From a virus, in IMG/VR virus record IMGVR_UViG_3300042397_000787: a stretch of 64,000 nt of DNA; one strand, given 5' to 3'. Positions 6,406-33,807 of this stretch are shown here, piece by piece. Made by a program: the position numbers and the translations under genes. The notes beneath the pieces are model-generated. The model worked only from the letters and a program-made list of their open reading frames with translations. It did not search any database and was not told the DNA's origin. Within the stretch, counting starts at the first letter, position 1. Each line of letters opens with the position of its first letter.

Positions 6406-6411
6406 AGATTC

Positions 6412-6440
6412 ACTATACACCTTTAGACGGTGTAAGTCAA
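6412..6440 (-). promoter_or_regulatory. Sigma70-type promoter of primase, probably leaderless
   Basis: TTGACT-N17-TATAGT, then GAATCT ATG. Confidence 0.7.
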
Positions 6441-18283: not shown

Positions 18284-18324
18284 ATACTTTCGAATCACAC
18301 TCTCTCTTTTCCATCTACTATTAT

Positions 18325-18352
18325 ATAGTAGCAGATTCTGAGGAAATGTCAA
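18325..18352 (-). promoter_or_regulatory. Sigma70-type promoter with GAATC in spacer
   Basis: TTGACA-TTTCCTCAGAATCTGC-TACTAT. Confidence 0.7.
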
Positions 18353-18361
18353 GCGGTATTT

Positions 18362-18712
18362 TTATGCCAGTATAGCACTCAATTCTTCGGTAACATCCAC
18401 TGCGGTAAGATCGATAGGAGGAAAATCGATTGCACCATTTAGATTGGCTTGGAATGTTTCAGAATTTGTAGGGGCTTCTGCAAAATAAATTTCAAATCCA
18501 GCTACAGTTTCACGAACAAATGAATCGCCACCTTCAAACATGTGGGAAACTTTATCAAGTTCTTCATTAATCATTTCAAAGGTGGGTTCACCAGTAAAAT
18601 ACTTGACGATATATTCTTTTGCACCAACTGTCTTCCATAATGGAAGGTCAGCACTACCAACATTTGTCCATACAAATGAGGATACTACAAGTTTAAGATT
18701 CAATTCGTCCAT
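18362..18712 (-). CDS. Hypothetical protein
   Basis: ORF with AGGA RBS directly after tRNA. Confidence 0.7.
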   Translation of the reverse strand: MDELNLKLVVSSFVWTNVGSADLPLWKTVGAKEYIVKYFTGEPTFEMINEELDKVSHMFEGGDSFVRETVAGFEIYFAEAPTNSETFQANLNGAIDFPPIDLTAVDVTEELSAILA

Positions 18713-18728
18713 ATTATTTCCTAAAAAC

Positions 18729-18805
18729 TGGTGCGCCGTGCAGGACTCGAACCTGCTGCCTCAAGATTAGAAGTCTCGCGCTCTATCCAGATGAGCTAAC
18801 GGCGC
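18729..18805 (-). tRNA. tRNA-Arg (anticodon UCU)
   Basis: GCGCCGT/ACGGCGC acceptor stem, TAGCTCATCTGGATAGAGC D arm, CGAGA-CTTCTAA-TCTTG anticodon arm, GGTTCGAGTCC, encoded CCA. Confidence 0.95.
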
Positions 18806-18843
18806 ATAACTATTGTATACTACATTTATAACAGTTTGTCAAG

Positions 18844-20235
18844 TTAAAACTCAAACTTTGAAAAATCTCTTCGCTTACCAATGGTAGTATTTTCAAACAC
18901 TGGAACATCGTCTTGCCCAGAGTCCATAATACCAGCCTGAGCATCATCTTCCAAGTCATACAGTTTCATCTTACCACGGTCGATACCAATCATGAAGCGT
19001 TTGTTCATACCTGGGTCGTTGTAACGATTCTTCAACTGCTTTATCATCAACTGGCCCATCTTGTCAAGTTCTTCTGTTGCGATAAGGGCAAACATCAAGT
19101 CAGCCGTAGCTGGTAGACCAAATGATTCTGAAGTATCTGTCAGTTCGACATCTGAATTGGCATAACCACTGCGGGTTGTCTGTGTAGCAGAAACGATTGG
19201 CAAATCAAACTCTACTGCCAGACCACGAAGTTCTTCTGCGATACCCTTAATGACTGTGTAAGAATTGGCACCAGACGATGCTTTGTAGCGACTAGATGCA
19301 CAAATATTCAGATAGTCAATGAAGATAACATCTGGCTTGAAGTTCCGCTTCAACTGGAGTTCGTTCAACAGAGCCTTGAAATGGCCTACATGGGCGCTGG
19401 CGGTTGGATATTCTTTGACAATCAAACGACCTTCTGTCTTCGAACGAATCTTTGCAATGCGCTGGTCAAACATAGACTTAGATAGGTCTTTGAGTTCTTG
19501 AATGTTAACGTTCATCAAGTTGGCGTCAATACGTTCTGCGATACGTTCTTCTGCCATTTCAAGGGTGATATACAAAACGTTCTTGTTCTGACCCAATGCA
19601 CCAGCAGCCATGTGGCACATGAACAGAGACTTACCAACACCAGTACCAGCAAGAGCAATGTTCAATGTCTTATTTGGTAGACCACCATTGGTAATCTTGT
19701 TGAACATCTCGAGGTCAAACGGCAACTTAGTTTCTGCCCGGTGATAGAAATCAAAACGGTCTTCGGCGTTATCAATGTAGTCATGTCCTACGTTGTTATC
19801 AAACCCAACTGCCAATGCATCTTGGAGAATGGAAGGAATACCATCTTGCGAATGTACCTTGTCTTCGCCATCAATGATTTGAATCGATTGCATAATGGCA
19901 TTATACACCGCTCGGTCTTTGCAGAACTTTTCGGTCTGGTCTAGAAGCCACTTCTCATTGGCATCCACATCATCATCAAGTGCGGTTAGAGTTTCTGTAA
20001 CGTGCTGATACTCTTTTTCATTTACCTTGCGGTCATTTTGTAGAGCAATGTTTATGGCATCGATGGTAGGAAGAGAATTATATTTGGTAACAAATTCGTT
20101 GATGTAACGATAGATTAACTTCTCGGCGTTGTCTGTAAAATATTCATCTTTAATGAATGGGATTACCTTACGCAGGTAATCCTCATCCGAAATCAACTTA
20201 CTTAGGATAATAGTTTCAATTTTCTTCTGCAACAT
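18844..20235 (-). CDS. Replicative DNA helicase (T4 gp41-like)
   Basis: AGTGVGKS Walker A, TLEMAEE, IDYLNI, SESFGLPATAD, KQLKNRY. Confidence 0.96.
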   Translation of the reverse strand: MLQKKIETIILSKLISDEDYLRKVIPFIKDEYFTDNAEKLIYRYINEFVTKYNSLPTIDAINIALQNDRKVNEKEYQHVTETLTALDDDVDANEKWLLDQTEKFCKDRAVYNAIMQSIQIIDGEDKVHSQDGIPSILQDALAVGFDNNVGHDYIDNAEDRFDFYHRAETKLPFDLEMFNKITNGGLPNKTLNIALAGTGVGKSLFMCHMAAGALGQNKNVLYITLEMAEERIAERIDANLMNVNIQELKDLSKSMFDQRIAKIRSKTEGRLIVKEYPTASAHVGHFKALLNELQLKRNFKPDVIFIDYLNICASSRYKASSGANSYTVIKGIAEELRGLAVEFDLPIVSATQTTRSGYANSDVELTDTSESFGLPATADLMFALIATEELDKMGQLMIKQLKNRYNDPGMNKRFMIGIDRGKMKLYDLEDDAQAGIMDSGQDDVPVFENTTIGKRRDFSKFEF

Positions 20236-20443
20236 TCACATCCTCTAGTTCAAAATATTCTTCATAATCATTAGCAATCTTCATACAACAATCTTCACAT
20301 ACCCACTTCTCAAAAGTTAGGCCATGTTCTGAACCATGAAGACAGATTGCAGCATCTTTCTTAGGATTGATGCCGCAACCACATTCGTCACAGATTTTCG
20401 TATTCTTCTGAAACATCTTCGTCAAGAATTTCCACATTTTCAC
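20216..20443 (-). CDS. Small Cys-rich (zinc-ribbon-like) protein
   Basis: CDECGC...CEDCC; fills uvsX-gp41 gap with overlaps; start uncertain. Confidence 0.6.
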   Translation of the reverse strand: MKMWKFLTKMFQKNTKICDECGCGINPKKDAAICLHGSEHGLTFEKWVCEDCCMKIANDYEEYFELEDVNVAEEN

Positions 20444-21452
20444 CCTCCATCATTTGTCCGCCTGCCATGCGGTATCGCTTTTCAATCCAATCACTGAATG
20501 TTGGGTCGGTCAGAACTGGCATCCAGAATTCTTTGTTGTATGTATCATTCAGGCGATGCTTCTTTTCTTCTGTTGCCAACTGGTACCAACCATTCGATGG
20601 CTTGATAACGTGGCCGCTTTCTAGTGCCATATCAAGTAGACCAGACCACTTACTGATACCACCTTGAAAGGTTACTTCGATTGGAATCTTTGACTTCTCA
20701 CGAACATAACGAGACTTCTCGACGTTAATGATAAAGTTGTAACCAACTACTTCGGTGCCTTGCTTCTCTTGCTGGCGACCAATGATAAAGATATTATCGG
20801 CTGAGTAGTAGATGCCCGTACCACCAGAGACGATTGCCTTGGGGAACATACCAATTTCCATATAAGTGTGATTGACCACGACCATAGGAATGTCTTTAAT
20901 GGTAAGATGTGGTGTAATCATACGGAACAAGGACTTCATCTGCTTGGCGCGGGTCATATCTGCAACCGACTTACCATCTAGGGCATCATCAACTTCTTTC
21001 TTAGAAGCAAGGTTACCCACAGAGTCAACTACAATCATGACACGGTCCTTACGTTCAAGTTCATTAACTTGCTTCATAATATCATGTTTCAATTGTTCAA
21101 TGTCAGTGATGGGAGTATGAACAACCTTACCTGTATCAATGCCAAAGTTCTCAAAGTATGACTGAGGAGCACCAAACTCGGAGTCGTAAAACAAAACAAT
21201 ACCATCATCATACTTGTCCAAGAAACTCTTAACCAACATCATGGCGAATGCAGTCTTAAAGTGTTTAGATGGGCCAGCAAAGATGGTTAGCCCTGGTGTC
21301 AGACCACCATCTAGTTTACCAGAGAGAGCCACATTTAGTGCAGGAACAGAAGTCTGAATTAAATCTTTGGTACTAAAGAGTTTACTTTCTGATAATACAT
21401 TCGTTTCTTTGATAGTAGTATTCTTTTTCAGTTTGTCAAGTAGTGCGTTCAT
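20388..21452 (-). CDS. uvsX: RecA-like recombinase
   Basis: GPSKHFKT, FYDSEFG, VDSVGNLAS, SGGTGIYYSA. Confidence 0.96.
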   Translation of the reverse strand: MNALLDKLKKNTTIKETNVLSESKLFSTKDLIQTSVPALNVALSGKLDGGLTPGLTIFAGPSKHFKTAFAMMLVKSFLDKYDDGIVLFYDSEFGAPQSYFENFGIDTGKVVHTPITDIEQLKHDIMKQVNELERKDRVMIVVDSVGNLASKKEVDDALDGKSVADMTRAKQMKSLFRMITPHLTIKDIPMVVVNHTYMEIGMFPKAIVSGGTGIYYSADNIFIIGRQQEKQGTEVVGYNFIINVEKSRYVREKSKIPIEVTFQGGISKWSGLLDMALESGHVIKPSNGWYQLATEEKKHRLNDTYNKEFWMPVLTDPTFSDWIEKRYRMAGGQMMEGENVEILDEDVSEEYENL

Positions 21453-23974
21453 GCGAATAGGTCCTCCAATGTTGCTTTAGGTTCAGTAGACCAGCCTAGA
21501 CCGTCTACAATCATGTTAAGTGGGTCAAGAAATGCTTTCTGGAACATCATCTTATAATCTATATATCGGTGAATGTCAAGTTCTTTTGGCATTATTCCGA
21601 GAAAAGCAATACAATTTTCATGCATTGTATTAGGCTCTTTGAGATAAAGGAACTTAATCTTTTCACCCTCTTGTATTAATTCATACTTCTTGTCAAGGTT
21701 GGCTTTCTTGATCATATGGTTATACATCAGGGCACCGCGAACATGCATCGGTGTTCCCTTGCCATAAATATCAGCCGTAGATGTATACTTAGACAACCCA
21801 TTTACACCTCGTGGGAATGCAATCTCTTCAGGTGTCATCTTGTAGAAGGCTTCGCGGGTTTCTTCAATGAACTTCTGTAGAGTTGCTTCGTCGGAGGTCA
21901 GGCAGAGTCTGACGGCTTCTTTGAGGCTCTTGCGGACGGGCGCAGGCGTAGACGAGCGGACGATTTCGAGACCCATGACTTTGAGTTTTGGCTCATCGTA
22001 ACGGACGCCTTCGTTGTCATAGACATTAAGTGCGTACCTCTTTTTTGCAACCCAGATGCCACGTTCCGCGATTGCCTCGCGTTTGAATATAATTTTCTTC
22101 TGAAATGCATTCGTGTAGTCCGCAAGTCCATCGCAACTCTTGTTGATCGCCTCTGTGATTTTCTCTTCGCAGATTTTATCGAGAACGCCAATGAGTTTGT
22201 CGCGGTCCATATCAGGATAAAACTTACTAACAAGAGGCTCCAGGGAAATATAACAAGAATCAGTATCACTGTAGAAAGAGTAGTTGTGTCCATTTGTTCC
22301 TACGACCTTGTTGAGATATGCGTCAAGTGCCTTACCTACTTCCTGAATAATATACTGACCAGTCATAGTGATGCCTTCAGCCACTCGGGCATCATAATAA
22401 CGGAAGTATTCATTACCCATGGCACCGAAGAGAGAGTTCAACTGAATCTTTCTTGCCATTTGAAAGTTGTTATACTTCGAAATGTTGTTCTTTAGTTTTT
22501 CGTCTTTAGTAAGTTCATATTCTTTCTGCGCGGCAATCATTAACTTCTTGTAGCGTTGACGGTCATCAAAGAACTTCTCTACGATTTCTGGAAACAGACC
22601 TTGCTTAGTGCGATTATAGCAATACCCATTTGAAGTCATGCAATAATCATTGTCTTTTAGGTCATCAAGGTCAAAGGTCTTATCAAGAAGGCCGCGCACG
22701 GTGGTGTCTTTGACATAACCATTTACCATGGTCTCAGGCGACATGTTATACTGCATAATGATTGACGGATACAGAGAGGTAGCATCGAAAGAAACTACCC
22801 AGTCATACTTACCGGGCTTAGGTTCTTGAACATACGCACCTTCAATGCCGCGGCCCTGTTGGTCTCTCTTCTGAGGAATGTGAATGTTCTTATCATACAG
22901 GTGATTATAGAGAAGGCAATCCCAGGTGCGAACCTGTGAGAAAACGTCATTGTAATTACACTTGGCGTCATAGGCCATCGTGAGGATAAGTTCAATCAAC
23001 TTCAACTTACGTTCAAGTTCGTCCACAATTTCAACGTCTCGAACGTTGTATTCAACAAACTTCTGCCAGTCTTTAGTGTAAAACTCACGGAAACTTTCAT
23101 AGGGATTTTCCAGCTTGTTCTTACCAAGTTCTACAGAAGCAATATGGTCTAGCTTGTAGGACTCTTGGTTAGAATACGTGAACTTCTTAAAGAGGTCCAG
23201 ATAATCTAGAACGGCAATACCCTTCATTTCATAGGTAAACATTTCGCGACCCATGACGTTCATGTTCTTGCGCTGCACTAGACCCCAAGGAGAAAACTTC
23301 TTCTTAGTGGCATTTTCATCATTGAACAGCCGCTCTACACGGGCAATCAAGTATGCAATATCGAAAAGTTCAACGTTCCAACCAGTGATGATATCTGGAT
23401 GATTATCAGAATGAAAACGGACATAAGTTTCTAGCAGGTCACGTTCATTATCACACTTGACATACAGAAACTTGTTGCCAGTGGCACGAAGGGCTGCAAT
23501 TTCTTCTGAGTTTACATCATCAAATTCACCGCAACCAAAGGTAATAATCTGGCGAGAGACTAGGTCCTTGACAGTGATGAGAAGTATCTCTTCAATCGGA
23601 TTATTGATATCTGGAAAGCCAAACTCGGCTCTCGTTTCGATATCGATTGTCTGAATCTTTAGAGCATTCATATCCCATTGAATTTCACCAGGAAACTTAT
23701 GCGTGATATACTGGTAGCCAAAGTTTGTCTGACCATAGATAGGAAAGTTATCTACTTCACCATAGGTTTGAATAAACTCTTTGGCGTCATTATTACTTTG
23801 AAACTCAACTGGCTGAAGATTGTCGCCATACAGAGACTTATGGACACCTTCTTCTTTGCTCTTCACATAGAGAACAGGAGAGAAGTCTTCCCTACGATTG
23901 AAGCGCACACCATTATGAACACCTCGAACGAGAATCTTGGAGCCATATTGGTGTGCGCTGGTATAAAACTTCAT
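21449..23974 (-). CDS. Family B DNA polymerase (T4 gp43-like), unsplit
   Basis: DIET exonuclease, SFDATSLYPSII, KIQLNSLFG, YSDTDS. Confidence 0.97.
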   Translation of the reverse strand: MKFYTSAHQYGSKILVRGVHNGVRFNRREDFSPVLYVKSKEEGVHKSLYGDNLQPVEFQSNNDAKEFIQTYGEVDNFPIYGQTNFGYQYITHKFPGEIQWDMNALKIQTIDIETRAEFGFPDINNPIEEILLITVKDLVSRQIITFGCGEFDDVNSEEIAALRATGNKFLYVKCDNERDLLETYVRFHSDNHPDIITGWNVELFDIAYLIARVERLFNDENATKKKFSPWGLVQRKNMNVMGREMFTYEMKGIAVLDYLDLFKKFTYSNQESYKLDHIASVELGKNKLENPYESFREFYTKDWQKFVEYNVRDVEIVDELERKLKLIELILTMAYDAKCNYNDVFSQVRTWDCLLYNHLYDKNIHIPQKRDQQGRGIEGAYVQEPKPGKYDWVVSFDATSLYPSIIMQYNMSPETMVNGYVKDTTVRGLLDKTFDLDDLKDNDYCMTSNGYCYNRTKQGLFPEIVEKFFDDRQRYKKLMIAAQKEYELTKDEKLKNNISKYNNFQMARKIQLNSLFGAMGNEYFRYYDARVAEGITMTGQYIIQEVGKALDAYLNKVVGTNGHNYSFYSDTDSCYISLEPLVSKFYPDMDRDKLIGVLDKICEEKITEAINKSCDGLADYTNAFQKKIIFKREAIAERGIWVAKKRYALNVYDNEGVRYDEPKLKVMGLEIVRSSTPAPVRKSLKEAVRLCLTSDEATLQKFIEETREAFYKMTPEEIAFPRGVNGLSKYTSTADIYGKGTPMHVRGALMYNHMIKKANLDKKYELIQEGEKIKFLYLKEPNTMHENCIAFLGIMPKELDIHRYIDYKMMFQKAFLDPLNMIVDGLGWSTEPKATLEDLFA

Positions 23975-24035
23975 GTAACCCTCTTTTCAATTCAAATACT
24001 ACTATACTATAAAACATAACAAAAGTAAAGAGGTT

Positions 24036-24458
24036 TTAGTTACACCATGATGCTTTCTTTTCGCCCATATAGGCGCGGGCAAGACCAGCCTTGATTAGTT
24101 CTGTTGATAGGTCCTTGCCATTATACTTGACATAACCAAGAACACGGCCGCCAAACTTGTCCCATTCTTTTAGATCAACCTGAATAATCTGACCAGGTTT
24201 AATCACAGACTTAGTAAAGTTTGTTGCTGCTTCTCCACCAGCAGCTTCCTTAGGACACTGGGCACGTCCACCCTTTTCAGGTGTATCAACACCCAATACT
24301 CGGATTTTAATTACGGGTGGAATTGGAGCTGGCACCCATGGTGCTTCGACTTCGATTGTGTCGCCGTCCATAACTCTTGTTACCTTCCATGAATGCTCTA
24401 CTGCCAGAGCTGGAGTGGCAATCAGGGCTGCGGCTAGAAATGCGGTAAATAATTTCAT
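24036..24458 (-). CDS. Thermonuclease (SNase-like) with signal peptide
   Basis: MKLFTAFLAAALIATPALA; VMDGDT, IRVLGVDTPE, DKFGGRVLG, GLARAY. Confidence 0.88.
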   Translation of the reverse strand: MKLFTAFLAAALIATPALAVEHSWKVTRVMDGDTIEVEAPWVPAPIPPVIKIRVLGVDTPEKGGRAQCPKEAAGGEAATNFTKSVIKPGQIIQVDLKEWDKFGGRVLGYVKYNGKDLSTELIKAGLARAYMGEKKASWCN

Positions 24459-24754
24459 ATGATAATCTTACTTTCTGGAATAACGATACCACTACCGAAA
24501 CGAGTATTATATTCGTTCTTCATTCCAGTATCTGGTTCGAAAATAGAAACAACTGCACCAGCACGAATAGGAATATCTCCGGTCTGGGCATACGGGCAGA
24601 AGGGTGCTAGTCCAATACCAAACTGATTGTTCTGGTTAGGTACCATCATAATCAACAGAGGCTTTTGTAGGATTACAAGACCCTCAGCACTTTCATCAAT
24701 GTCAGCAATGATTTCCTCACCGCTGATTAGCTTTATACATTTAATATTGGACAT
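24455..24754 (-). CDS. Conserved T4-like hypothetical protein (Sm-like fold likely)
   Basis: IKLISGEEIIA...Y...FGSGIVIP; typical neighbour of hsp20/gp43. Confidence 0.7.
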   Translation of the reverse strand: MSNIKCIKLISGEEIIADIDESAEGLVILQKPLLIMMVPNQNNQFGIGLAPFCPYAQTGDIPIRAGAVVSIFEPDTGMKNEYNTRFGSGIVIPESKIII

Positions 24755-24775
24755 AGCATTCACCTTCTTAAATTA

Positions 24776-25264
24776 TTACTTAGTTTTACCTTCTGCCAAG
24801 AATTCGGCAGCTTGTGATGGATATTCATTATCCTCATCGGTAATGTCGATCTTCTTGGCTTTCTTTTCTTCTGGAATAAATGCTTCAAGCCAAATCTTTA
24901 GCATACCATTTACCAGAGTAGAACTTTTTACTTCAACATTGTCGGCAAGAGTGAATTCACGTTTAAATCCTCGCTCGGCAATACCTTTGTAAAGGTATTC
25001 AGTATTGTCAGTGGCATCGATTTTACCACGAATACTCAACAGACCTTCTTGCAATTCAATATCAATCTCGGACTTACCGAAACCAGCAACGGCTAGTTCA
25101 ATAACGTAGCGGTCTTCATCGACCTTCTTGATATTGTATGGGGGATATTTAATTGGCATCATCTGGGATGATTGGTCGGCAATATCTGCCAGCCTCTTCA
25201 TAACACGGTCTGCGCCAACGAAATAACGATCCATCTGTGGGATCATTGTTGTATCAAATTTCAT
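24776..25264 (-). CDS. Small heat shock protein Hsp20
   Basis: YPPYNI, ELAVAGF, YLYKGIAERGFKREFTL, NGML; ATG 25264 after AGGAG. Confidence 0.95.
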   Translation of the reverse strand: MKFDTTMIPQMDRYFVGADRVMKRLADIADQSSQMMPIKYPPYNIKKVDEDRYVIELAVAGFGKSEIDIELQEGLLSIRGKIDATDNTEYLYKGIAERGFKREFTLADNVEVKSSTLVNGMLKIWLEAFIPEEKKAKKIDITDEDNEYPSQAAEFLAEGKTK

Positions 25265-25353
25265 ATTTTTGCTCCTATTAAGCGAGTTTAAAAAAGTGTG
25301 CCATCCGAAGCATGACACACTTTATTTATACTATACTTTTAGAAGAAAGTCAA
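25265..25353 (-). promoter_or_regulatory. hsp20 control region: overlapping sigma70/late promoter, UUCG hairpin with U-run, ROSE-like SD-occluding hairpin
   Basis: TTGACT-N17-TATAAATA; GTGTGTCAT-GCTTCGG-ATGGCACAC-T6; CTCGCT-TAAT-AGGAG. Confidence 0.7.
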
Positions 25354-25770
25354 CTACTTTTTGCGACCGATGTTATACTTTTGAATAAGTTCCCACTCGT
25401 TCTTTTCTTTGTAAGCAATTACTTTGATTTGATTTAGAGGTGCCTTGTCCTCATGAATTTCTGGATTGAGAATGGTAATCAAACCCCAGTCCGAAAGTAA
25501 ATGCGCAACAGTATTTCTACGTTGCAAGTCATTATCGCTAAAGTCCGCATCTTTACCATCTAAGGCAAAGAGTTCCTTAAAGTGGACAATGAAATACCTA
25601 CCCTGCTTATGAAGGATATGGCATGACTGATAAAGAATCTTATCCTTACGAGACGCTACCCCAATACGTGAAAGAGTTTCACGAACCTTTAGAAAGTCGT
25701 CTGGATTCTCCAACTTAACTTCCAAGGGAGCATACCCAGGATAGTTAATATCAAAAAAATCTTCGCTCAT
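25354..25770 (-). CDS. regA: Translational repressor RegA
   Basis: DDFLKVRETLSRIG, LYQSCHILHKQGRYFIVHFKELF. Confidence 0.96.
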   Translation of the reverse strand: MSEDFFDINYPGYAPLEVKLENPDDFLKVRETLSRIGVASRKDKILYQSCHILHKQGRYFIVHFKELFALDGKDADFSDNDLQRRNTVAHLLSDWGLITILNPEIHEDKAPLNQIKVIAYKEKNEWELIQKYNIGRKK

Positions 25771-26222
25771 TTTCTACCACCTTTATACAATTTCTCTTTT
25801 ATTGTTTTCTTTTGTTCTTCGGAGAGAATTGTAAGAGCTTGACTAGCTTTTTCATTACTATAGCCATAATACTCCTTGATCATCTCAACTTCGGCATCGT
25901 CTTCAATTTTGATCCATTTATCAAAACGCTTTCTAGACCTAATTGTATTTATAAGAAAAGTATTTTGCAGAGCTTTATCAAGGTGTGGGCGGCAGTTCAT
26001 CTCGTTGGCTGGAATGACAGTATCAGCACTGAAACTCAGTCCACGATTGATGATCCAAGGGTTGTATTGCTTCTCTGACCACTCATCTACTATGAGATTA
26101 GTCTTCTTGTGGTTAATATCGTTGATGAAATCAAAGGGAGAAATCTTGGCTTTTTTCTCCACATAATCTTCTGGCTTGTATTCTACCTTTGGATCACCAA
26201 GGCCCTCTAGAATACCGTCCAT
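25767..26222 (-). CDS. Clamp loader small subunit (gp62-like)
   Basis: YNPWIINRGLS, EYYGYSNEKA; between gp44 and regA. Confidence 0.92.
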   Translation of the reverse strand: MDGILEGLGDPKVEYKPEDYVEKKAKISPFDFINDINHKKTNLIVDEWSEKQYNPWIINRGLSFSADTVIPANEMNCRPHLDKALQNTFLINTIRSRKRFDKWIKIEDDAEVEMIKEYYGYSNEKASQALTILSEEQKKTIKEKLYKGGRK

Positions 26223-27154
26223 TACTTCCACTCCACTCCAGCCATAATCTCAACCAGACAGGCTACGAGATTGATTTCTTGGTTGGTGGCGAAAGCAGAC
26301 TTGTATTGATAGTCGGCCAGCAGAACGATAAGAGCCGCAGGATACTTAACATCATCAAGAAGGGTATCATAAATCTTACGGAAAATGATGCCAGCATCGT
26401 TGTCGATATTATCTACAACCCACTGACGGACTTTCTTGAAGTCCTTACCACGAAGGGCATCAACCAGTTCTTTCATATTGATTTCTTGGACATTGGCCAA
26501 GATACCAGCATCGATAGTACCACTTACACTGTAACGCTGTAGTTCATTAAGAACACGGCGATAATCAGGGAAGTGCTTCTTGAGGACTTCGGCAACAACC
26601 TTGTCATCATACTGCACACTCTCGGCTTCAAGAATATCACCAAGACGTTTCATAAAACGTCCAGCCATCTTTGGTCTATCGGCCTTAGTCAGCTTGAATT
26701 CAATCACCGCAGTTCGACTATGCAGAGGTGCAATGATACGGTTCTTGAAGTTACAGGTAAAGATGAAGCGGCAGTTGTTGGCAAACTCTTCAATGAAGGC
26801 ACGAAGGGCTGGCTGAGTGGAATTTGGATTCAGGTAATCGGCTTCGTCTAGAATAACAACCTTAGTCTTGCCGCTAAACGAGACAGAGGATGCAAACTCA
26901 CGAATCTTGGTACGGAGAACATCAATACCAGATTCTTCTGAACCGTTAATAACGATATAATCACAACCCAATTCTTCACAAATGGCTCGGGCGATAGTAG
27001 TCTTACCTACACCAGCCGAGCCACACAGGAGCATATTGGGAATCTCACCAGTTGCCACAAACTGGCGAAAGGTATTCAGTTGTTCATCGGGAAGGATACA
27101 ATCGTCCAGCTTACGAGGACGATACTTCTCAACCCAGAGGAAGTCTTCACGCAT
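26222..27154 (-). CDS. Clamp loader large subunit (gp44-like)
   Basis: LWVEKYRP, GVGKTT, LDEAD, PLHSR; ATG 27154 after GGAG. Confidence 0.96.
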   Translation of the reverse strand: MREDFLWVEKYRPRKLDDCILPDEQLNTFRQFVATGEIPNMLLCGSAGVGKTTIARAICEELGCDYIVINGSEESGIDVLRTKIREFASSVSFSGKTKVVILDEADYLNPNSTQPALRAFIEEFANNCRFIFTCNFKNRIIAPLHSRTAVIEFKLTKADRPKMAGRFMKRLGDILEAESVQYDDKVVAEVLKKHFPDYRRVLNELQRYSVSGTIDAGILANVQEINMKELVDALRGKDFKKVRQWVVDNIDNDAGIIFRKIYDTLLDDVKYPAALIVLLADYQYKSAFATNQEINLVACLVEIMAGVEWK

Positions 27155-27234
27155 AATGATTCTCCATAATAAAATAAAATGTCCGTCGCGATGTGTAAGG
27201 GCATCCACGGACTCTGGCTTAGTGACCAGTATTC

Positions 27235-27263
27235 ACTATATCAGTTGTTGCGCAACCAGTCAA
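27235..27263 (-). promoter_or_regulatory. Sigma70-type promoter upstream of gp44
   Basis: TTGACT-N17-TATAGT overlapping the end of the peroxiredoxin gene. Confidence 0.7.
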
Positions 27264-27825
27264 GAATATTTTCGGGTGAAGTTACACCATAAGGATCATC
27301 CGCGCAGTTGTCCTCAACTACATCACCTTCAATGAACCACTTCTCAATCTGACCGTTATTCACCACAACAGCATATCGCCATGAACGTTCACCAAAGCCA
27401 AGATTGTCCTTCTGGACATTCATTCTCATCTTACGAGTGAACTTACCAGAACCATCAGGAATCATCTTAACCTTCTTGATCTTCTGATCTTTCGCCCAGC
27501 AATTCATGACAAAGGAATCATTGACAGATACACAGTAGATGTCCTTGATACCAAGTGCCTTAAACTCAGCAAAGTTCTTTTCGAAACCAGGTAACTGGTA
27601 GGTCGAACATGTTGGAGTAAAGGCACCAGGAAGAGAGAACAGAACTACACGTTTACCAGCGAAGTAATCATAGGTTGTCTTATCTTCCCAACGGAATGGG
27701 TTAGGACCTTCAATCGAGTCATCGCGGACACGGGTCTTGAAGACTACTGCAGGAACAATCTCAGGTAGTTCCTGATCGCTGGCTTCATCGTCCCACTCCC
27801 GCTTAAATTTAAACTTCTCTGCCAT
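27241..27825 (-). CDS. Peroxiredoxin (Prx5/redoxin type)
   Basis: SLPGAFTPTCS, SVNDSFVM, GFGERSWRY. Confidence 0.95.
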   Translation of the reverse strand: MAEKFKFKREWDDEASDQELPEIVPAVVFKTRVRDDSIEGPNPFRWEDKTTYDYFAGKRVVLFSLPGAFTPTCSTYQLPGFEKNFAEFKALGIKDIYCVSVNDSFVMNCWAKDQKIKKVKMIPDGSGKFTRKMRMNVQKDNLGFGERSWRYAVVVNNGQIEKWFIEGDVVEDNCADDPYGVTSPENILDWLRNN

Positions 27826-27992
27826 TATACCACAGCTACCTGCGCATCAAAGTCATTAAGAATGAGGAGCTTGTTAAACTGGCGAACAACTTCATCAAGG
27901 TCACTGGTGGTAAACGCAATGGTTACATCACGAGGGTCTTCTTCTGCATCATAAGGAATGCGGGCATTAAATGTGAATTCAAACTTAGTCAT
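27825..27992 (-). CDS. Small hypothetical protein (55 aa), not in ORF track
   Basis: MTKFEFTFNARIPYDAEEDPRDVTIAFTTSDLDEVVRQFNKLLILNDFDAQVAVV; AGGAG RBS; stop overlaps Prx ATG. Confidence 0.75.
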   Translation of the reverse strand: MTKFEFTFNARIPYDAEEDPRDVTIAFTTSDLDEVVRQFNKLLILNDFDAQVAVV

Positions 27993-28003
27993 ATTATTTC
28001 TCC

Positions 28004-28663
28004 TTAAATAGAGGACGCAGGGTCCATTGCAATGTAATAAACGAGTTCGCGACCCTTGCTCTTAAACTCCATGGCGCGCTTCTTACCAAGCGTGACAGTG
28101 TAGTTATCAGAGAGGACTTTGAGGTTCTCGGTCTTCACTCGGCAATCAAACACAGGAGCGGGGTCGGTGCTGATAGTCTTAGTGTAGGAGTTTGCCGATG
28201 AATTAGTGGGGTCGCCAACCTTGAGTTGAACCTGGGCGCCATCCGATACAATGCTGATGATTGGTGCCGAGGTGATTGATGCGGCGCGGAGAATCATGCT
28301 GATTGCATCCGCAGAAAGATCGAACGACCACACAGGTTCAATCTCAAGGTTTTTGTCGGGAGCAGCGGTCACGGTGCCAGGATCGGAATAGAAGTATTCA
28401 AACTTCGAGCCGTCCTTACTAACCTTGATGCTAGTCTCGCCAAAATCTACGTCCTGATCTTCCATAAGGGTCAGAAGTGCCAGAAGGCTGTTCAGATCAT
28501 AGACGGCAATTTCACGCGGAAAGGTTTCAGTAACCGTGGCACGTGAAAAGATGTTCTTCCCAGGACTTACGGTACCAATCACATTACCCTGCCGAAACAG
28601 AATATTGGTATTGATACCAGCGTAGTTCTTTAGAAGTGAAAGTGTTTCATTAGAAATTTTCAT
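28004..28663 (-). CDS. Sliding clamp (gp45-like)
   Basis: MKISNETLSLLKNYAGIN, IAVYDLN, YYIA; upstream of gp44. Confidence 0.93.
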   Translation of the reverse strand: MKISNETLSLLKNYAGINTNILFRQGNVIGTVSPGKNIFSRATVTETFPREIAVYDLNSLLALLTLMEDQDVDFGETSIKVSKDGSKFEYFYSDPGTVTAAPDKNLEIEPVWSFDLSADAISMILRAASITSAPIISIVSDGAQVQLKVGDPTNSSANSYTKTISTDPAPVFDCRVKTENLKVLSDNYTVTLGKKRAMEFKSKGRELVYYIAMDPASSI

Positions 28664-28669
28664 AATATA

Positions 28670-29182
28670 TTAACCTTTTTTCTTGTTGGTCTTATTACCA
28701 GTATTTGTTATAACAGAAATTGTGTCGTTTGTCAAGAGAGAACTGGTGCCCATGTTGTAATTATTCCAGTCTGGAACAATAGTATCGTTAAGGTTTAGCG
28801 TAATAGTATCATAACCATTTGGATGAGCAGACAAAGTTGTAGTAGACAAGGCTGTAGCAAGAGCAGGTTTTAGGTTGACATCCTCGTAAAGTCCTGCTAG
28901 ACTAGGCTGTTGTGCCTTATCATGAACATGCAATGCAATGATGGCATAGTGAATGACCTTCATGAGGTCCTTGCGCCAGTCTTCGGGAGTTCCCTTATGA
29001 CCGTATCGCTGGGCATACTTCATGATGTTTCCAACCGTGAAGCCTACACCATGTCCACCATCAATGATAAACTCGGTAGCTTGGTACTTGTTCTGCGAAT
29101 AGTGCTGCCCATAAGTGGCATTCACATACTCGGTAACCTGCCGAAGCAGGTCACCTTCGTTATACTTATATTTAATTGTCAT
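28670..29182 (-). CDS. DUF3310-like protein (T7 gp1.7/SaV-like)
   Basis: HY...GFTVGNIMKYAQRYGHKG...DLMKVIHY. Confidence 0.7.
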   Translation of the reverse strand: MTIKYKYNEGDLLRQVTEYVNATYGQHYSQNKYQATEFIIDGGHGVGFTVGNIMKYAQRYGHKGTPEDWRKDLMKVIHYAIIALHVHDKAQQPSLAGLYEDVNLKPALATALSTTTLSAHPNGYDTITLNLNDTIVPDWNNYNMGTSSLLTNDTISVITNTGNKTNKKKG

Positions 29183-29191
29183 ACTATCTCC

Positions 29192-30361
29192 TTAGAAAGG
29201 TGTTTCTTCAAAAAATGCGTCTTCATTGACGTTATCGGTAGGGCCAGTATCAATCTTGGCATCAACCTTGGTGTAGAGGTCGAGGAATGCTGACTTGGTA
29301 TCAGCATCAAAGCGGTTAACGCAGAGTTCGACTGCCTTCTGGCGAGACTTGAACATGGCGAAGGCATTGACAATGTGTTCCAGACGGCGAGTCGAAATCA
29401 GGTCGTCAATGCCACCATCGTAAAAAGTCTTACGGATGATTTCAGCCCAAGTAACAAGGTTGTCGGCGAATTCTTCATCAATCGCGCCAGCCTTTTCCAT
29501 CTTGTTCATGACAATCTTCTTTTCGACCTTAGCCGATGGGTATTCTTGTTCGACTGTGATGGCGAAACGCTCAAGGAAGGCATCATCAAGAATCTGAGCC
29601 GAGATGAACTTGCCGTCATCGGAACCACGACCCTTGGTGTTAGCAGTTGCAACCACGTTGAAGCCCTTGGCGGGGAAGACAGTCTCGCCAGTCTTCTTAT
29701 TGAAGTATGGCTTGCCTTCAAGAATGGCCTGGATGCACATCAACTTGTTCGAACCGCGGTCGATTTCATCAAGAATAAGAATTGCCCCACGCTTCATGGC
29801 AGTCAGAACAGGACCTTCGCGGTACACTACGTTACCATCGACAAGGGTGTTGCCACCAATCAGGTCGTCTTCATCGGTTTCTACCGAGATGTTGACGCGG
29901 AGACATTCGCGCTTCAACTTGGCGCAAGCCTGTTCAATCATTGTGGTCTTACCGTTACCAGACAGGCCAGAGATGAACGTGGGATAGAAGGCTTCTGCCT
30001 TGAGAACCTTAATCAGGTCGGTGTAAAAGCCAAACGGAACGTAGGTCGCATCAAGACGGGGAACCAGATTGTCAATGATTACCTCTAGCTTAGGCTGCAT
30101 CACCGTCTTAGCAACGGGCTTCGAGATAATCTCAGCAACTGGCTGAGGCATCACGGGTGCAGGCTTGGCAGTCACGCCAACCATTGCAGCAGACAAATCG
30201 TAAACGCCACGAGAAACCACATTGTCCTTTGACAGGAGCCAGTTCAACTTCTCAATACCCATGGGGTGGGCGACGGCAAAAACATCTTTCTTGCGGAAAA
30301 TACCACCATTCGTATCAGCGGCACGAAGGGCGGCAAGCAGGTCTTCACGGGTACTAATCAT
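29192..30361 (-). CDS. MoxR/CobS-like AAA+ ATPase
   Basis: GLSGNGKT, LILDEID, ATANTKG, AFLERF, ISTRRL. Confidence 0.92.
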   Translation of the reverse strand: MISTREDLLAALRAADTNGGIFRKKDVFAVAHPMGIEKLNWLLSKDNVVSRGVYDLSAAMVGVTAKPAPVMPQPVAEIISKPVAKTVMQPKLEVIIDNLVPRLDATYVPFGFYTDLIKVLKAEAFYPTFISGLSGNGKTTMIEQACAKLKRECLRVNISVETDEDDLIGGNTLVDGNVVYREGPVLTAMKRGAILILDEIDRGSNKLMCIQAILEGKPYFNKKTGETVFPAKGFNVVATANTKGRGSDDGKFISAQILDDAFLERFAITVEQEYPSAKVEKKIVMNKMEKAGAIDEEFADNLVTWAEIIRKTFYDGGIDDLISTRRLEHIVNAFAMFKSRQKAVELCVNRFDADTKSAFLDLYTKVDAKIDTGPTDNVNEDAFFEETPF

Positions 30362-30403
30362 AATAAAATCACCTTTTCACAAACAAACATCATCAATCAC
30401 ATT

Positions 30404-30437
30404 ATTTACTATAGTCGATTCGCGACCAAATGTCAAG
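30404..30437 (-). repeat. 34-bp promoter repeat, copy 1
   Basis: atttactatagtcgattcgcgaccaaatgtcaag identical at 32700-32733; reads TTGACA-N17-TATAGT on minus strand. Confidence 0.92.
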
Positions 30438-30443
30438 TGTTTT

Positions 30444-32675
30444 TTACGCCACAGCCTCAACCATTTTTGTAAGAATTACACGACCAATAGATTTCTTATC
30501 CTGAAACGCCTTGAACGCCTTGGTCAGTTCTTTCTTATCGTTGGAGTCCACAGTCAGAGTGTCTTCTGAAATTTGCAGACTACTGCCAGCTTTAATCAGA
30601 AACTGGTCATCAAAGCCGTTGCTGTCCTTGAGAAGTGCCGCACCTTCCTTCTTGAAAGCCTTGCGGGTCGCATCACTGACTGTGCCAGGGACGAGCGAAC
30701 GAGCCAAGAAATACTTGAGGTCATAAGAACCCATCAGGTAAAAGTTAATCATCCGCGAACCAGTGGTTTCACGATACAGTTCAAGAAGAGCCTTACAGTA
30801 AGACCGGCTGCGGTAGCTAACACCGTCATATTGCTGCGAAAAGGTGCGACGAGTCTTAGAGTCAACAATAGCTAGGTTCTTACGGTGATAATCATTATGA
30901 TTATGACCAACAGTTTCGAAGTTGCAATCACCTTCACCATCGGTCAAGAATACCGACGAAAGAACTTCAACGCGATTGCGGTTCTTGAAATCTTCGGCGA
31001 TGTAACGGCCAAGCAGAATGGCTTCTTCTAGCGGAGTGCTGCCAAGACCAAAAGAATTGGCAGCGGTACCGTCTAGATAAAGGTCATGATAGCTACGATT
31101 ATAAGACTGGCCAAGAGCAAGAATATTTGCCATCTGGGTCTTGAACTTACCACCAGAAACGCCGGTAGCCACCAACTGGAGCATACGGAAACTGGGGTCA
31201 GAAATCATCAGGTTGTTAGGGTCAGACAAGTTATTACGGCTGCGCACTGTATCGAAATACGTTTGTGGTGCGCTAGAGTTCGTAATGAAACCGTAAACTT
31301 CAAACGGAATGCGAACTTTCTGGCAGAACGAAGCCAGTAGAACCAGCTGCTCCATGGTACCAGACATGTTGGAAGACATGCTGCCCGACATATCAAGGTA
31401 CAGAAGCATGCCGTGGTTCTGACCGTTAGGAACAACCGTGTTCTGTAAGAACAGGTCTTCTGTAATCTTGTAAGCCCACACTTTGTCCATGTTGATGCGG
31501 CCAGTCTTGGAAGTCTGGGCGCGCATAAGCGACTTGGCTTTTTTCTTACGTTCAAAGTCCTGTGCCATTGAACTAAGGTACTTGCTGTTCTTGGCAAGAA
31601 ACTCCTTGTAGAGTTCCATCTTGACTTGTTCGGCAGTCTTGCCTGCTCGGTATGCGGCGCCACCAACAGAGAACTTCAACATCTTTTCGACGGTGTTAAT
31701 ACCGACAATAAAATCAGCCGGGTTCAGAATAGGGAGCTTGGCATAAAACGTCTCACGGGCGTTTGCATCAAGCAGGCTGTCTTCATTCCGACGAAAGTTC
31801 TCATCGGTGAACGAAGTCGGCTCAGGGCTTTCTTCTGTATCATCGGACTCACTGTCACCAGACGAACCGTCTTCTTTCTCTTCTGACTTTTCTTCTGACT
31901 TTTCTTCGGTATCATCGGACGATGAAGACTTAGGTTCTTCTGTTTCGTCTTCTGATTTCTGACCCGTAGAGGAAGGCGTCTGTGGCTTTTCCTTGTCATC
32001 TGAGTTGTCCGAATTAGGAACTTCAACGTAGTCTGCACTCGGATCGAATTCACCGTCACCATCTTCCATGATATCACCAAGGGCGTTCATGAATTGTTCG
32101 AAGTCAAGTTCCTCGGTTGAATTTTCGGCACGTTCATAGAGTTCGCTAGCCAGCGCTACCACATCTTCCCAGGTGTCGAGGCTGTCAAGACGATTGACAA
32201 TCGCTTGTTCTTCGTCCGAGAACTTGACGTTCAAAAACGAACCGACCTTGGCGTGAAGGTTGATGCGGTCAATGAACTTTAGCTTATTGACATCCATACC
32301 TTCGACACCGAAGAAATTCTTTTCGAAGAGTTCTTGGTAACCATTGTAGAACGACCGACGAAGACCGGGGTAACGGTTCTTCATCTTGCGTTCGATACGA
32401 GCATCTTCAATGATGTTGAGGAAAGACTTGAAGCCCACACCCTTCTCAGAGATGCTGGAGTGCCAGCCGTCAGCAGGCGTTTCAAGAGCGTGACCGACTT
32501 CATGGCCGATTAGCAGGTCATAAAGGTCAGCCGAAGTCTCTTTGAAGATCGGCAGCACGACCGTGCGGGTCTCCAGATTGAAGTAAGCGGTACTTGTCTT
32601 CTGGTGTTCTACATGGATATTTTCTGTCGCCAACAACTTGGCGAGAATCGACTTTTCAGCAAACTGGGACATCAC
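30444..32675 (-). CDS. CobT-like protein: N-terminal HEXXH metallopeptidase-like domain, acidic linker, C-terminal VWA domain
   Basis: HEVGH, NIIEDARIE, DMSGSMS (MIDAS), GSTPL, LTDGE. Confidence 0.88.
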   Translation of the reverse strand: MMSQFAEKSILAKLLATENIHVEHQKTSTAYFNLETRTVVLPIFKETSADLYDLLIGHEVGHALETPADGWHSSISEKGVGFKSFLNIIEDARIERKMKNRYPGLRRSFYNGYQELFEKNFFGVEGMDVNKLKFIDRINLHAKVGSFLNVKFSDEEQAIVNRLDSLDTWEDVVALASELYERAENSTEELDFEQFMNALGDIMEDGDGEFDPSADYVEVPNSDNSDDKEKPQTPSSTGQKSEDETEEPKSSSSDDTEEKSEEKSEEKEDGSSGDSESDDTEESPEPTSFTDENFRRNEDSLLDANARETFYAKLPILNPADFIVGINTVEKMLKFSVGGAAYRAGKTAEQVKMELYKEFLAKNSKYLSSMAQDFERKKKAKSLMRAQTSKTGRINMDKVWAYKITEDLFLQNTVVPNGQNHGMLLYLDMSGSMSSNMSGTMEQLVLLASFCQKVRIPFEVYGFITNSSAPQTYFDTVRSRNNLSDPNNLMISDPSFRMLQLVATGVSGGKFKTQMANILALGQSYNRSYHDLYLDGTAANSFGLGSTPLEEAILLGRYIAEDFKNRNRVEVLSSVFLTDGEGDCNFETVGHNHNDYHRKNLAIVDSKTRRTFSQQYDGVSYRSRSYCKALLELYRETTGSRMINFYLMGSYDLKYFLARSLVPGTVSDATRKAFKKEGAALLKDSNGFDDQFLIKAGSSLQISEDTLTVDSNDKKELTKAFKAFQDKKSIGRVILTKMVEAVA

Positions 32676-32699
32676 AAAACCTCATCAATCAATCATATA

Positions 32700-32733
32700 A
32701 TTTACTATAGTCGATTCGCGACCAAATGTCAAG
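32700..32733 (-). repeat. 34-bp promoter repeat, copy 2
   Basis: Identical to 30404-30437. Confidence 0.92.
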
Positions 32734-32741
32734 CGATTCTT

Positions 32742-33110
32742 TTAGAAACAACGGCGCTCACGGCGAATATATCGATTGCCGTAGTAGTCATATTCAGTAA
32801 CTTCTGTGGTACGGCAGTTACGGTCGCGGCGATAATATGCATCACGGTTGCGATAGTGATATTCATACTCGCGGTCATAAACTTCGCGCTCAACTTCCTC
32901 GTCGCGGCTATTGTTGTTTTTAATAGCAGCACCAAGAATAAATGCGCCTAGACCGATAGCAATAGCTTCGCCGGTATTAATATGATTGCCGCGCTTGCGC
33001 TCGTGGCGTTCAGTGCGGTGTTCACCACGACCCTTGGCTTCTGCTACCACAGGAGTAGCAAGAACACTGACCGCAATAATACTAGAAATAACAGACTTAA
33101 ACATAATCAT
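32742..33110 (-). CDS. Exported/membrane protein with signal peptide and Gly-rich hydrophobic segment
   Basis: MFKSVISSIIAVSVLATPVVAEA; AIAIGLGAFILGAAI; Arg/Tyr-rich tail with Cys pair; AGGAG RBS. Confidence 0.75.
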   Translation of the reverse strand: MIMFKSVISSIIAVSVLATPVVAEAKGRGEHRTERHERKRGNHINTGEAIAIGLGAFILGAAIKNNNSRDEEVEREVYDREYEYHYRNRDAYYRRDRNCRTTEVTEYDYYGNRYIRRERRCF

Positions 33111-33125
33111 TCTCCTTATATTATT

Positions 33126-33153
33126 AGTATACACGAATCGATGGTAATGTCAA
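33126..33153 (-). promoter_or_regulatory. Sigma70-type promoter with GATTC in spacer
   Basis: TTGACA-TTACCATCGATTCGTG-TATACT. Confidence 0.75.
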
Positions 33154-33154
33154 G

Positions 33155-33760
33155 TTAAAAACGTGTCATTGACCCATCGGCATGAGCCAAAAATGGCTCA
33201 AACTTAATGTTGGGATATTCATCTGCCAAATCTTTGAACATCTGGAGATTGGAAACAGCATCATCAAAGAGACGAGCGCGAGTAAATTTACCAGTATCAA
33301 GGTATTGTTTAATAAAGATTTTCTTGGCTGGAGCAGACGGCATAGCGCCTAGATTGCCAGCACGGTGAACATGTATATCATCAATATCGATACCTTGTTG
33401 ACGAAAGGTATCTAGAAAAATATCACGGTCATCAAAATCTGACCGAGCGGTAATGACAATCATCTTACTGCCACGGGCCTTAATATTTTTATGCATTGCA
33501 ATCAATTTGCGAATCGCTTTAGCGATAGGTTCGCTGGTGTCACGAAAATGCCGGGCGTCCCTAAACTCGCTAAAGTCAAAGGATTCACCCGGCTGTAAAT
33601 TATATGTATTGTATTGCTTGTTACCCAGTGTCTTGATTATCTTACCGCCTTTGACGATATGGACACGGGCTTTGGTACGGAACAATGTCTCGTCAATATC
33701 CCAGATAGTTAATCCGGCACTGTCTTGCGACTCACTTATAAACTCTTTAAAACCAATCAT
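33155..33760 (-). CDS. HAD-superfamily phosphatase with capsid-targeting-like N-terminus
   Basis: MIGFKEFISE; WDIDETLF (DxD), ITAR, K, FDD..SNL. Confidence 0.82.
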   Translation of the reverse strand: MIGFKEFISESQDSAGLTIWDIDETLFRTKARVHIVKGGKIIKTLGNKQYNTYNLQPGESFDFSEFRDARHFRDTSEPIAKAIRKLIAMHKNIKARGSKMIVITARSDFDDRDIFLDTFRQQGIDIDDIHVHRAGNLGAMPSAPAKKIFIKQYLDTGKFTRARLFDDAVSNLQMFKDLADEYPNIKFEPFLAHADGSMTRF

Positions 33761-33766
33761 ATTTAT

Positions 33767-33807
33767 ATACTACTCGATTCGTGAGTGAATGTCAAGTAGT
33801 ATTTATA
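33767..33807 (-). promoter_or_regulatory. Tandem late (33800-33807) and sigma70-type (33767-33795) promoters of the HAD gene
   Basis: TATAAATA; TTGACA-TTCACTCACGAATCGAG-TAGTAT-N6-ATG. Confidence 0.75.

Follow-up and report, generated by a model that had tools for sequence, protein, structure and literature searches.

The closest described systems to the promoter element considered here are the GcrA/CcrM sigma70 promoters of Caulobacter crescentus (PMC4647560, PMC5887438, PMC9976885), which combine -35 and -10 hexamers with GANTC in the spacer and/or the early transcribed region. Their one or two boxes per promoter read TGATTCG or CGA(A/T)TCG, with CGAATC on the non-template strand. We found a similar arrangement in 64 kb of IMG/VR record IMGVR_UViG_3300042397_000787 (hereafter the window; coordinates are those of the whole stretch), which is part of a T4-like myovirus genome with almost all genes on the minus strand. 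Five of its minus-strand promoters with a TTGACA -35 carry GA(A/T)TC ending exactly 3 nucleotides (nt) before the -10 hexamer. Comparison with related viral sequences indicates that this spacer box is a real promoter element under constraint, and that it defines a lineage-specific class of predicted early promoters.

The GcrA motif of Caulobacter was described as TGATTCG, more broadly YGAKTCK (Haakonsen 2015, PMC4647560), and sites of the GcrA regulon form a narrow cluster around -20 and a spread over +2 to +30 (PMC4647560). The pockets of GcrA hold the methyl groups of both strands and methylated sites are preferred (PMC4647560, PMC5887438); in filter binding this preference is modest, with a 1.4-1.7-fold lower dissociation constant (Kd) (PMC4647560). 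The DNA-binding domain has been crystallised on TGATTCG/CGAATCA (Wu 2018, PMC5887438), and the non-template strand of the polymerase scaffold used by Wu et al. for cryo-EM reads TTGACA-CCCGGGC-GAATC-CCTGC-TATAAT, with GAATC at -22 to -18. The windows stated for GcrA place the site centre at -20 +/- 1, at -30 +/- 2 or between +5 and +30.

Other systems offer partial parallels. MotA/AsiA middle promoters of T4 also have an additional conserved element that defines a temporal class, but the MotA box replaces the -35, whereas the -35 of the promoters reported here is consensus. T4-type phages are said to possess mobile early promoter cassettes (PeSL, ascribed to Arbiol et al. 2010). These resemble the present promoters as near-identical strong early promoters placed before small ORFans in a hyperplastic region and as indels between relatives. 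They differ in that a terminator hairpin is joined to the promoter, while no terminator-like hairpin was seen next to any of our five promoters, and the spacer and leader boxes described below have no T4 counterpart. Methylation-coupled promoters of mobile elements are represented by IS10 pIN and Mu mom, where the effect of Dam methylation at GATC has been shown experimentally. There too a methylation target in the promoter lets replication alter expression, but the methylase and motif are different and the sites lie in the hexamers or an upstream operator. Finally, alphaproteobacterial phages use host CtrA boxes ('lytic deferment'; Mascolo 2022, PMC9437464). The site of a host cell-cycle regulator in phage promoters makes expression follow host state in that case as well, although the regulator is another one and its site is TTAA-N7-TTAA. 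The same study searched cultured alphaproteobacterial phages for the GcrA motif and found no positional signal (PMC9437464). Besides the use of CtrA boxes, genes for GcrA or CcrM are known from phages, but an early regulon of a phage that rests on boxes of the GcrA type is not known to have been described.

Five promoters with a spacer box

The first-pass annotation of the window had listed five minus-strand TTGACA promoters with GA(A/T)TC 3 nt before the -10, and its description proved exact:

33767..33795, minus strand: promoter P33795, TTGACA-N9-GAATC-GAG-TAGTAT with a 17-nt spacer; -35 at 33790-33795, GANTC at 33776-33780 in CGAATCG, -10 at 33767-33772
33126..33153, minus strand: promoter P33153, TTGACA-N8-GATTC-GTG-TATACT with a 16-nt spacer; -35 at 33148-33153, GANTC at 33135-33139 in CGATTCG, -10 at 33126-33131
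32704..32739, minus strand: promoter P32732, TTGACA-TTTGGTCGC-GAATC-GAC-TATAGT; -35 at 32727-32732, GANTC at 32713-32717 in CGAATCG, -10 at 32704-32709
30408..30436, minus strand: promoter P30436, TTGACA-TTTGGTCGC-GAATC-GAC-TATAGT; -35 at 30431-30436, GANTC at 30417-30421, -10 at 30408-30413
18287..18361, minus strand: cassette of promoter P18352, TTGACA-N8-GAATC-TGC-TACTAT; -35 at 18347-18352, GANTC at 18334-18338 in AGAATCT, -10 at 18325-18330

All five have the form TTGACA-N16/17-TAnnnT and match 10-11 of the 12 sigma70 consensus positions, and an independent sigma70 consensus scan placed them among the best matches in 17-35 kb. The spacer site reads CGA(A/T)TCG in four of them; the exception is P18352 (AGAATCT), where TGC and TACTAT form an extended -10. 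GANTC-N3-TANNNT occurs nine times in the 64 kb, five times behind TTGACA. With a per-position GANTC frequency of 0.0026 and 11 independent promoters in the window, the presence of the box in at least four has P=1.5e-8. The first-pass annotation had counted four independent spacers. The positional excess holds, but independence is not complete: P30436 duplicates the core of P32732 as an identical 29-mer, and P18352 belongs to a dispersed family of cassettes of about 75 nt. The flanking sites that it reported are real: the P18352 leader consists of AGTAG...GAGAGAG followed by TGATTCG at 18291-18297, and an extra GAATC lies at 32735-32739, 2 nt before the -35 of P32732.

Relatives from IMG/VR served as comparison material, the main one being G002, a complete genome of 171,566 bp that is syntenic with the window and about 83% identical to it (nucleotide identity about 77-88%); megablast of the window against cultured phages gave no match. 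At orthologous promoters, read from about 30 contigs, GA(A/T)TC is kept, and variation falls in the spacer's 5' half and in the 3-nt gap. GAATC is present in all 13 of 13 orthologous variants of P33795, in which the 5' half of the spacer varies. The counterparts of P30436 have altered spacers (TTTACCCGC, GCT) and a replaced upstream flank, and GAATC is retained.

Four further promoters of the window serve for comparison:

6407..6440, minus strand: primase promoter, of a different class, TTGACT-N17-TATAGT; GAATC at 6407-6411 directly after the -10, start codon 6 nt after the -10
24001..24029, minus strand: gp43 promoter, TTTACT-N17-TATAGT, without GANTC
27235-27263: promoter TTGACT-N17-TATAGT, without GANTC
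28702-28735: promoter TTGACA-N17-TATAAC, -35 at 28730-28735, without GANTC

The GAATC just after the primase -10, already seen in the first pass, is there, and G002 has kept the same layout at 111725; Caulobacter GcrA sites are reportedly almost absent from the zone that holds it. The replication-gene promoters of the window are without the spacer box, in line with the proposal that the TTGACA class carries the site and promoters with other -35 hexamers lack it, but the TTGACA promoter at 28730-28735 has no site either. Box-bearing promoters precede ORFans, a DenV-like gene, the cobS/cobT genes and a kinase-like gene.

Cassette family, lineage and host

The genome-wide positional enrichment that the first-pass annotation had suggested looking for is present in G002. 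Among 41 promoter-like sites, defined as TTGAC(A/T)-N16-18-TAnnnT, 15 have GA(A/T)TC at the same offset (14 GAATC, 1 GATTC; P about 1e-27), and no spacer offset other than 3 nt from the -10 is populated. Since this distance is constant with a 16- or a 17-nt spacer, it is the -10, not the -35, that anchors the box.

Many of these promoters belong to one cassette family, of which P18352 and ten G002 members align with a mean column identity of 69% (alignment A1). Their consensus is cTTGACATT-N5-6-(C/A)GA(A/T)TC-N3-TAnnnT, and the cassette of about 75 nt has a TACCGC-like lead-in, then TTGACATT, the box and the -10, frequently with TGC between the two, and after these an AGTAG leader, a purine run and TGATTCG, next to which comes the start codon. 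This TGATTCG, the leader box, often accompanies the spacer box and occurs in either orientation about 20-25 nt after the predicted start (~+21 to +25; all positions are relative to the predicted start, with the -10 box placed at -12 to -7), and a third box stands 2 nt upstream of the -35 in some promoters. That the leader box can stand at one position in either orientation speaks for a reader of double-stranded DNA, not for an RNA or ribosome-binding feature. The P18352 cassette (~72-75 nt), which sits between two genes and upstream of a TATAAATA late promoter, is missing from the same place in G002 and represents an insertion or deletion between relatives. The cob-cluster promoters share the box and not the cassette leader.

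Within cassettes, the information content of the box is about equal to that of the hexamers, and the adjacent spacer bases are scrambled. When G002 cassettes were picked by the leader box alone, giving an unbiased set of 11, the spacer box was found in 8. Scanning the collection for the two-box architecture returned 97 stretches in about 70 viral contigs, where about a dozen single matches are expected by chance. These correspond to 54 distinct cassettes, with GAATC in 34, GATTC in 15, GAGTC in 3 and GACTC in 2. A second, much more diverged lineage has the same two-box cassette, at 3-6 per 10-15 kb, and swaps GAATC for GATTC between otherwise similar paralogues. The conserved entity is accordingly the palindrome GA(A/T)TC, usually in CGA(A/T)TC(G), rather than a single string passed on by descent.

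The flanks of the box are also biased by location. The 55 intergenic GANTC sites of G002 include 13 CGAATCA (the complement of TGATTCG), 8 CGAATCG and 7 CGAATCT, so that CGAATC(A/G/T) makes up 28/55, and perfect YGAKTCG boxes account for 24/55 intergenic vs 46/464 coding sites. The 7-mers TGATTCG and CGATTCG are no commoner in the genome as a whole than expected; their placement alone is unusual. At 161257-161268 of G002 and at about 6010 of L220, a pair of boxes overlaps into a perfect palindrome, TGATTCGAATCA or, directly before a start codon, GATTCGAATC.

The box is present in contigs with a gp43 at least 89% identical to that of the window, where GANTC occurs at 2.2-3.2 per kb. Sister lineages with gp43 76-80% identical have it in none of about 170 promoter-like sites and contain 3.6-5.7 GANTC per kb. 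Their orthologous promoters, such as the one before cobT, show a T/A-rich pentamer and GGG at the box position; for P32732 this is TTTTG-GGG or AATTA-GGG. The sister spacer word can be written as TTGACT-N9-(T/A-rich pentamer)-GGG-TA(T/G)A(C/A)T and was observed in G004 and G005 (L127-L140), for example at 121994, 119466 and 70587 of G005.

GANTC density in G002 is 2.85 per kb in coding vs 6.37 per kb in non-coding DNA, a relation that the sister genomes reverse (about 4.0 vs 2.7 per kb). Rarity of GANTC in genes with enrichment between them is a known signature of CcrM-bearing Alphaproteobacteria (PMC3973325). The observed/expected ratio (O/E) of GA(A/T)TC in the window lineage is 0.70-0.76 (z about -5 in G002) vs 0.86 for GA(G/C)TC, while the sister G005 shows no GA(A/T)TC depletion (0.94, with 0.87 for GA(G/C)TC). 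SAR11 and some marine Rhizobiales methylate GAWTC only, and in these bacteria GAWTC is depleted more than GASTC (PMC8919816); such GAWTC-specific CcrM variants would explain a box centre of A or T only. The palindromes avoided in the window lineage are GATC (O/E 0.47) and GTAC (0.35-0.40), and those avoided in the sister lineage are AGCT (0.11-0.16), CCGG (0.06-0.31) and GGCC. These differences indicate that the two lineages have different hosts.

The host, whose prediction had also been proposed in the first pass, is likely an alphaproteobacterium, as suggested by GapR, an alpha-type permuted transfer-messenger RNA (tmRNA), the nearest cellular GapR genes and the lack of psbA. G002 encodes GapR (88.6 bits), which was found in only Caulobacter among 14 control genomes, and 149 phage records with a GapR homologue have almost all alphaproteobacterial hosts. 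The tmRNA is present in G002 and in the sister genome G005. The nearest cellular GapR genes found were all from Sphingomonadales, and GcrA is present in two of the three genomes concerned. A class-wide search gave a GapR homologue in 298 of 401 Alphaproteobacteria, a tally made without taxonomy and including two unpublished genomes (G248, G048) on which no claim is based; the best match was a Sphingomonadales metagenome-assembled genome. Six-frame searches of G001-G005 gave no match to psbA. The GapR gene of G002 (78 amino acids (aa), L123:1483-1719; about 125.5-126.5 kb for the locus) adjoins, on the opposite strand, a gene for a 242-aa PP-loop protein (L123:1720-2448) that is QueC-like and has an SGGFDS motif, in a genome with no TGT/DpdA match.

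Six-frame family searches of G001-G005 gave no match to GcrA (PF07750), Dam-type methylase (PF02086) or TGT/DpdA (PF01702). MotA and AsiA (PF09010, PF09114) were likewise without a match in these five genomes, but the control search matched nowhere, so their absence is not proven. The earlier suggestion that the box-bearing class replaces MotA/AsiA-type control agrees with this result as far as the result goes. The sister G004 has an N6_N4 DNA methylase of 213-240 aa (105821-106459; L113:1501-2139) that was found in no other of G001-G005. RsrI/MboIIA-type enzymes are nearest to it, and CcrM is a distant relative only.

Candidate readers of the box

Our preferred reading, held tentatively and as somewhat less than probable, is that the boxes are docking sites for host GcrA riding on sigma70 polymerase. 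The early promoters, being of the sigma70 type, would bind host polymerase carrying GcrA, the DNA-binding domain of GcrA would dock on the boxes, and incoming phage DNA would be transcribed best in host cells containing GcrA. The boxes are also target sites of the CcrM type, and their A/T-only centre fits GAWTC-specific CcrM variants. The phage leader box is the exact GcrA consensus TGATTCG and, with the predicted start, falls inside the +5 to +30 window. The spacer box presents CGAATC on the non-template strand, as in the GcrA-RNA polymerase scaffold, and its fixed distance from the -10 is compatible with a reader held on sigma domain 2. The interpretation given in the first pass is partly supported: agreement with published GcrA boxes extends to sequence, strand and approximate position, but the flanks of P18352 do not fit and the predicted spacing departs by 2 bp, as discussed below.

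A number of observations weigh against GcrA as the reader. The spacer box lies 3 nt from the -10 vs 5 nt in Caulobacter, which puts its centre at about -18 from the predicted start, 2 bp closer than the -20 of the PcsM scaffold and just outside -20 +/- 1, and the extra box near -40, not seen in Caulobacter, is outside the known GcrA windows. AGAATCT/CGAATCT boxes, found in P18352 and seven G002 promoters, miss one flank of YGAKTCK, and GAGTC and GACTC are almost absent from the phage boxes though accepted by GcrA. Much of the numerical excess consists of paralogous copies of one cassette. Natural loss of the site occurs in four contigs related at P33153, which have GTTTC instead, and in three related at P18352, which have GAATA for GAATC; these variants indicate that the site is not inviolable. 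The remaining 3 of the 11 G002 cassettes picked by leader box lack it as well (AAATC or GGTT(G/A)). The search for GcrA and CcrM homologues suggested in the first pass gave neither a GANTC methylase nor GcrA in the complete relative G002, so that, unlike Caulobacter, this viral system appears to encode neither reader nor writer. Five cultured T4-like Rhizobiales phages (ORM_20, RL2RES, P10VF, RHph_I1_9 and phiM9) have 0 matches to TTGAC-N9-10-GANTC-N3-TA, and 41 Sphingomonadales genomes have 21 pattern matches vs 54 for the reversed control, a lack of enrichment that is either negative or uninformative.

Some of these discrepancies would be accommodated if the box were the operator of another protein, for example a phage repressor that shuts off early promoters or a host factor. 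Such a protein would bind CGA(A/T)TC repeats, two of which (before the -35 and in the spacer) are spaced by about two turns of the helix, while the leader copy is inverted. We regard this as unlikely. A promoter may have as many as three boxes, with 21-22 bp between the starts of the upstream and spacer boxes and with the leader box in inverted orientation, while the -40 box outside the GcrA windows and the 2-bp displacement of the spacer box from the GcrA optimum require no explanation under this model. Each lineage having its own spacer word, such as the sister TTTTG-GGG, is also what would be expected if reader and site co-evolve. However, early promoters must fire before any phage protein exists, a box of 5-7 bp is short for a classical operator, and the usual number of boxes in a promoter is only one or two. 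Exact agreement with the GcrA consensus TGATTCG would have to be a coincidence of roughly 1 in 1000 (6-mer, either orientation), and no candidate protein was found.

Less probable again is the absence of any dedicated reader, in which case the word would be kept by cassette copying and by an intrinsically strong spacer beside a TGC extended -10, with its identity to GANTC incidental. Cassettes are clearly homologous, as alignment A1 shows, and one is an indel relative to G002; several natural variants and paralogues do without the site, and candidate host genomes show no enrichment of the pattern. Such an origin fits poorly with a box about as conserved as the hexamers amid scrambled neighbouring bases, and with cob-cluster promoters that have the box without the cassette leader. 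Interchange of GAATC and GATTC preserves the palindrome only, the 7-mer is found again in the leader, in either orientation, and GA(A/T)TC is depleted elsewhere in exactly those lineages that use the box.

A stricter form of GcrA reading is a methylation-gated switch, in which host CcrM would N6-methylate the box and turn the promoter on, replicated unmethylated DNA would turn it off, or expression would track the phase of the cell cycle. It draws on all the evidence for GcrA, on the methyl pockets for both strands and the preference for methylated sites, and on the A/T-only centre and stronger GAWTC depletion, which fit GAWTC-specific CcrM homologues. We consider it improbable, and dependence on the methylation state of the box is speculative. 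No methylase was found in G002; without a phage GANTC methylase, incoming DNA may not be fully methylated, which weakens the idea of an on/off switch. Virion DNA from rapid T4-type replication may enter under-methylated, which would be the wrong way round for an early promoter, and the methyl preference of GcrA in filter binding is modest. It is just as doubtful that the whole immediate-early regulon is run by host CcrM/GcrA through boxes at -18 and +22, dependent on methylation and cell-cycle phase and turning itself off on unmethylated replicated DNA, with no phage-encoded regulator. Restriction avoidance alone was rejected, since GTAC and GATC are avoided more and it cannot account for retention at a fixed promoter position.

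If docking of host GcrA is true, the phage may tie its first genes to the host cell-cycle machinery. It would show how T4-like phages without MotA and AsiA time their early genes, and the success of infection would be tied to the cell-cycle stage of the host in abundant aquatic bacteria. The combination of GAWTC boxes with GAWTC depletion could then prove useful as a signature for predicting alphaproteobacterial hosts of uncultured phages.

Neighbouring genes and RNAs

The window encodes a gp43 DNA polymerase 49% identical to cyanophage gp43, a gp41-like helicase, UvsX, CobS/CobT-like proteins and a prohead protease. P33153 drives a 130-aa ORFan (32742-33134), P32732 a CobT-like gene of 743 aa (30444-32675) and P30436 a CobS-like AAA ATPase gene (29192-30361).

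P33795 drives a 201-aa polynucleotide-kinase-like gene (33155-33760). Late-type TATAAATA boxes are found at 33762-33769, overlapping the -10 and leader of P33795, and at 33800-33807, just upstream of its -35; because these T4-late-type boxes sit at or over P33795, the gene seems to be served by an early and by late promoters. Its ATG is only 6 nt after the -10, which predicts a near-leaderless or leaderless early transcript. The product begins MIGFKEFISE, a start that resembles T4 capsid-targeting leaders.

A single tRNA-Arg(TCT) gene (18729-18805) is located between the helicase gene and a small open reading frame upstream of the P18352 cassette. In G002, an array of about 25 tRNA genes includes a GOLLD RNA (RF02032, 187 bits) at 131244-131706 (L120:11244-11706), and one tRNA match falls inside the span of this RNA.

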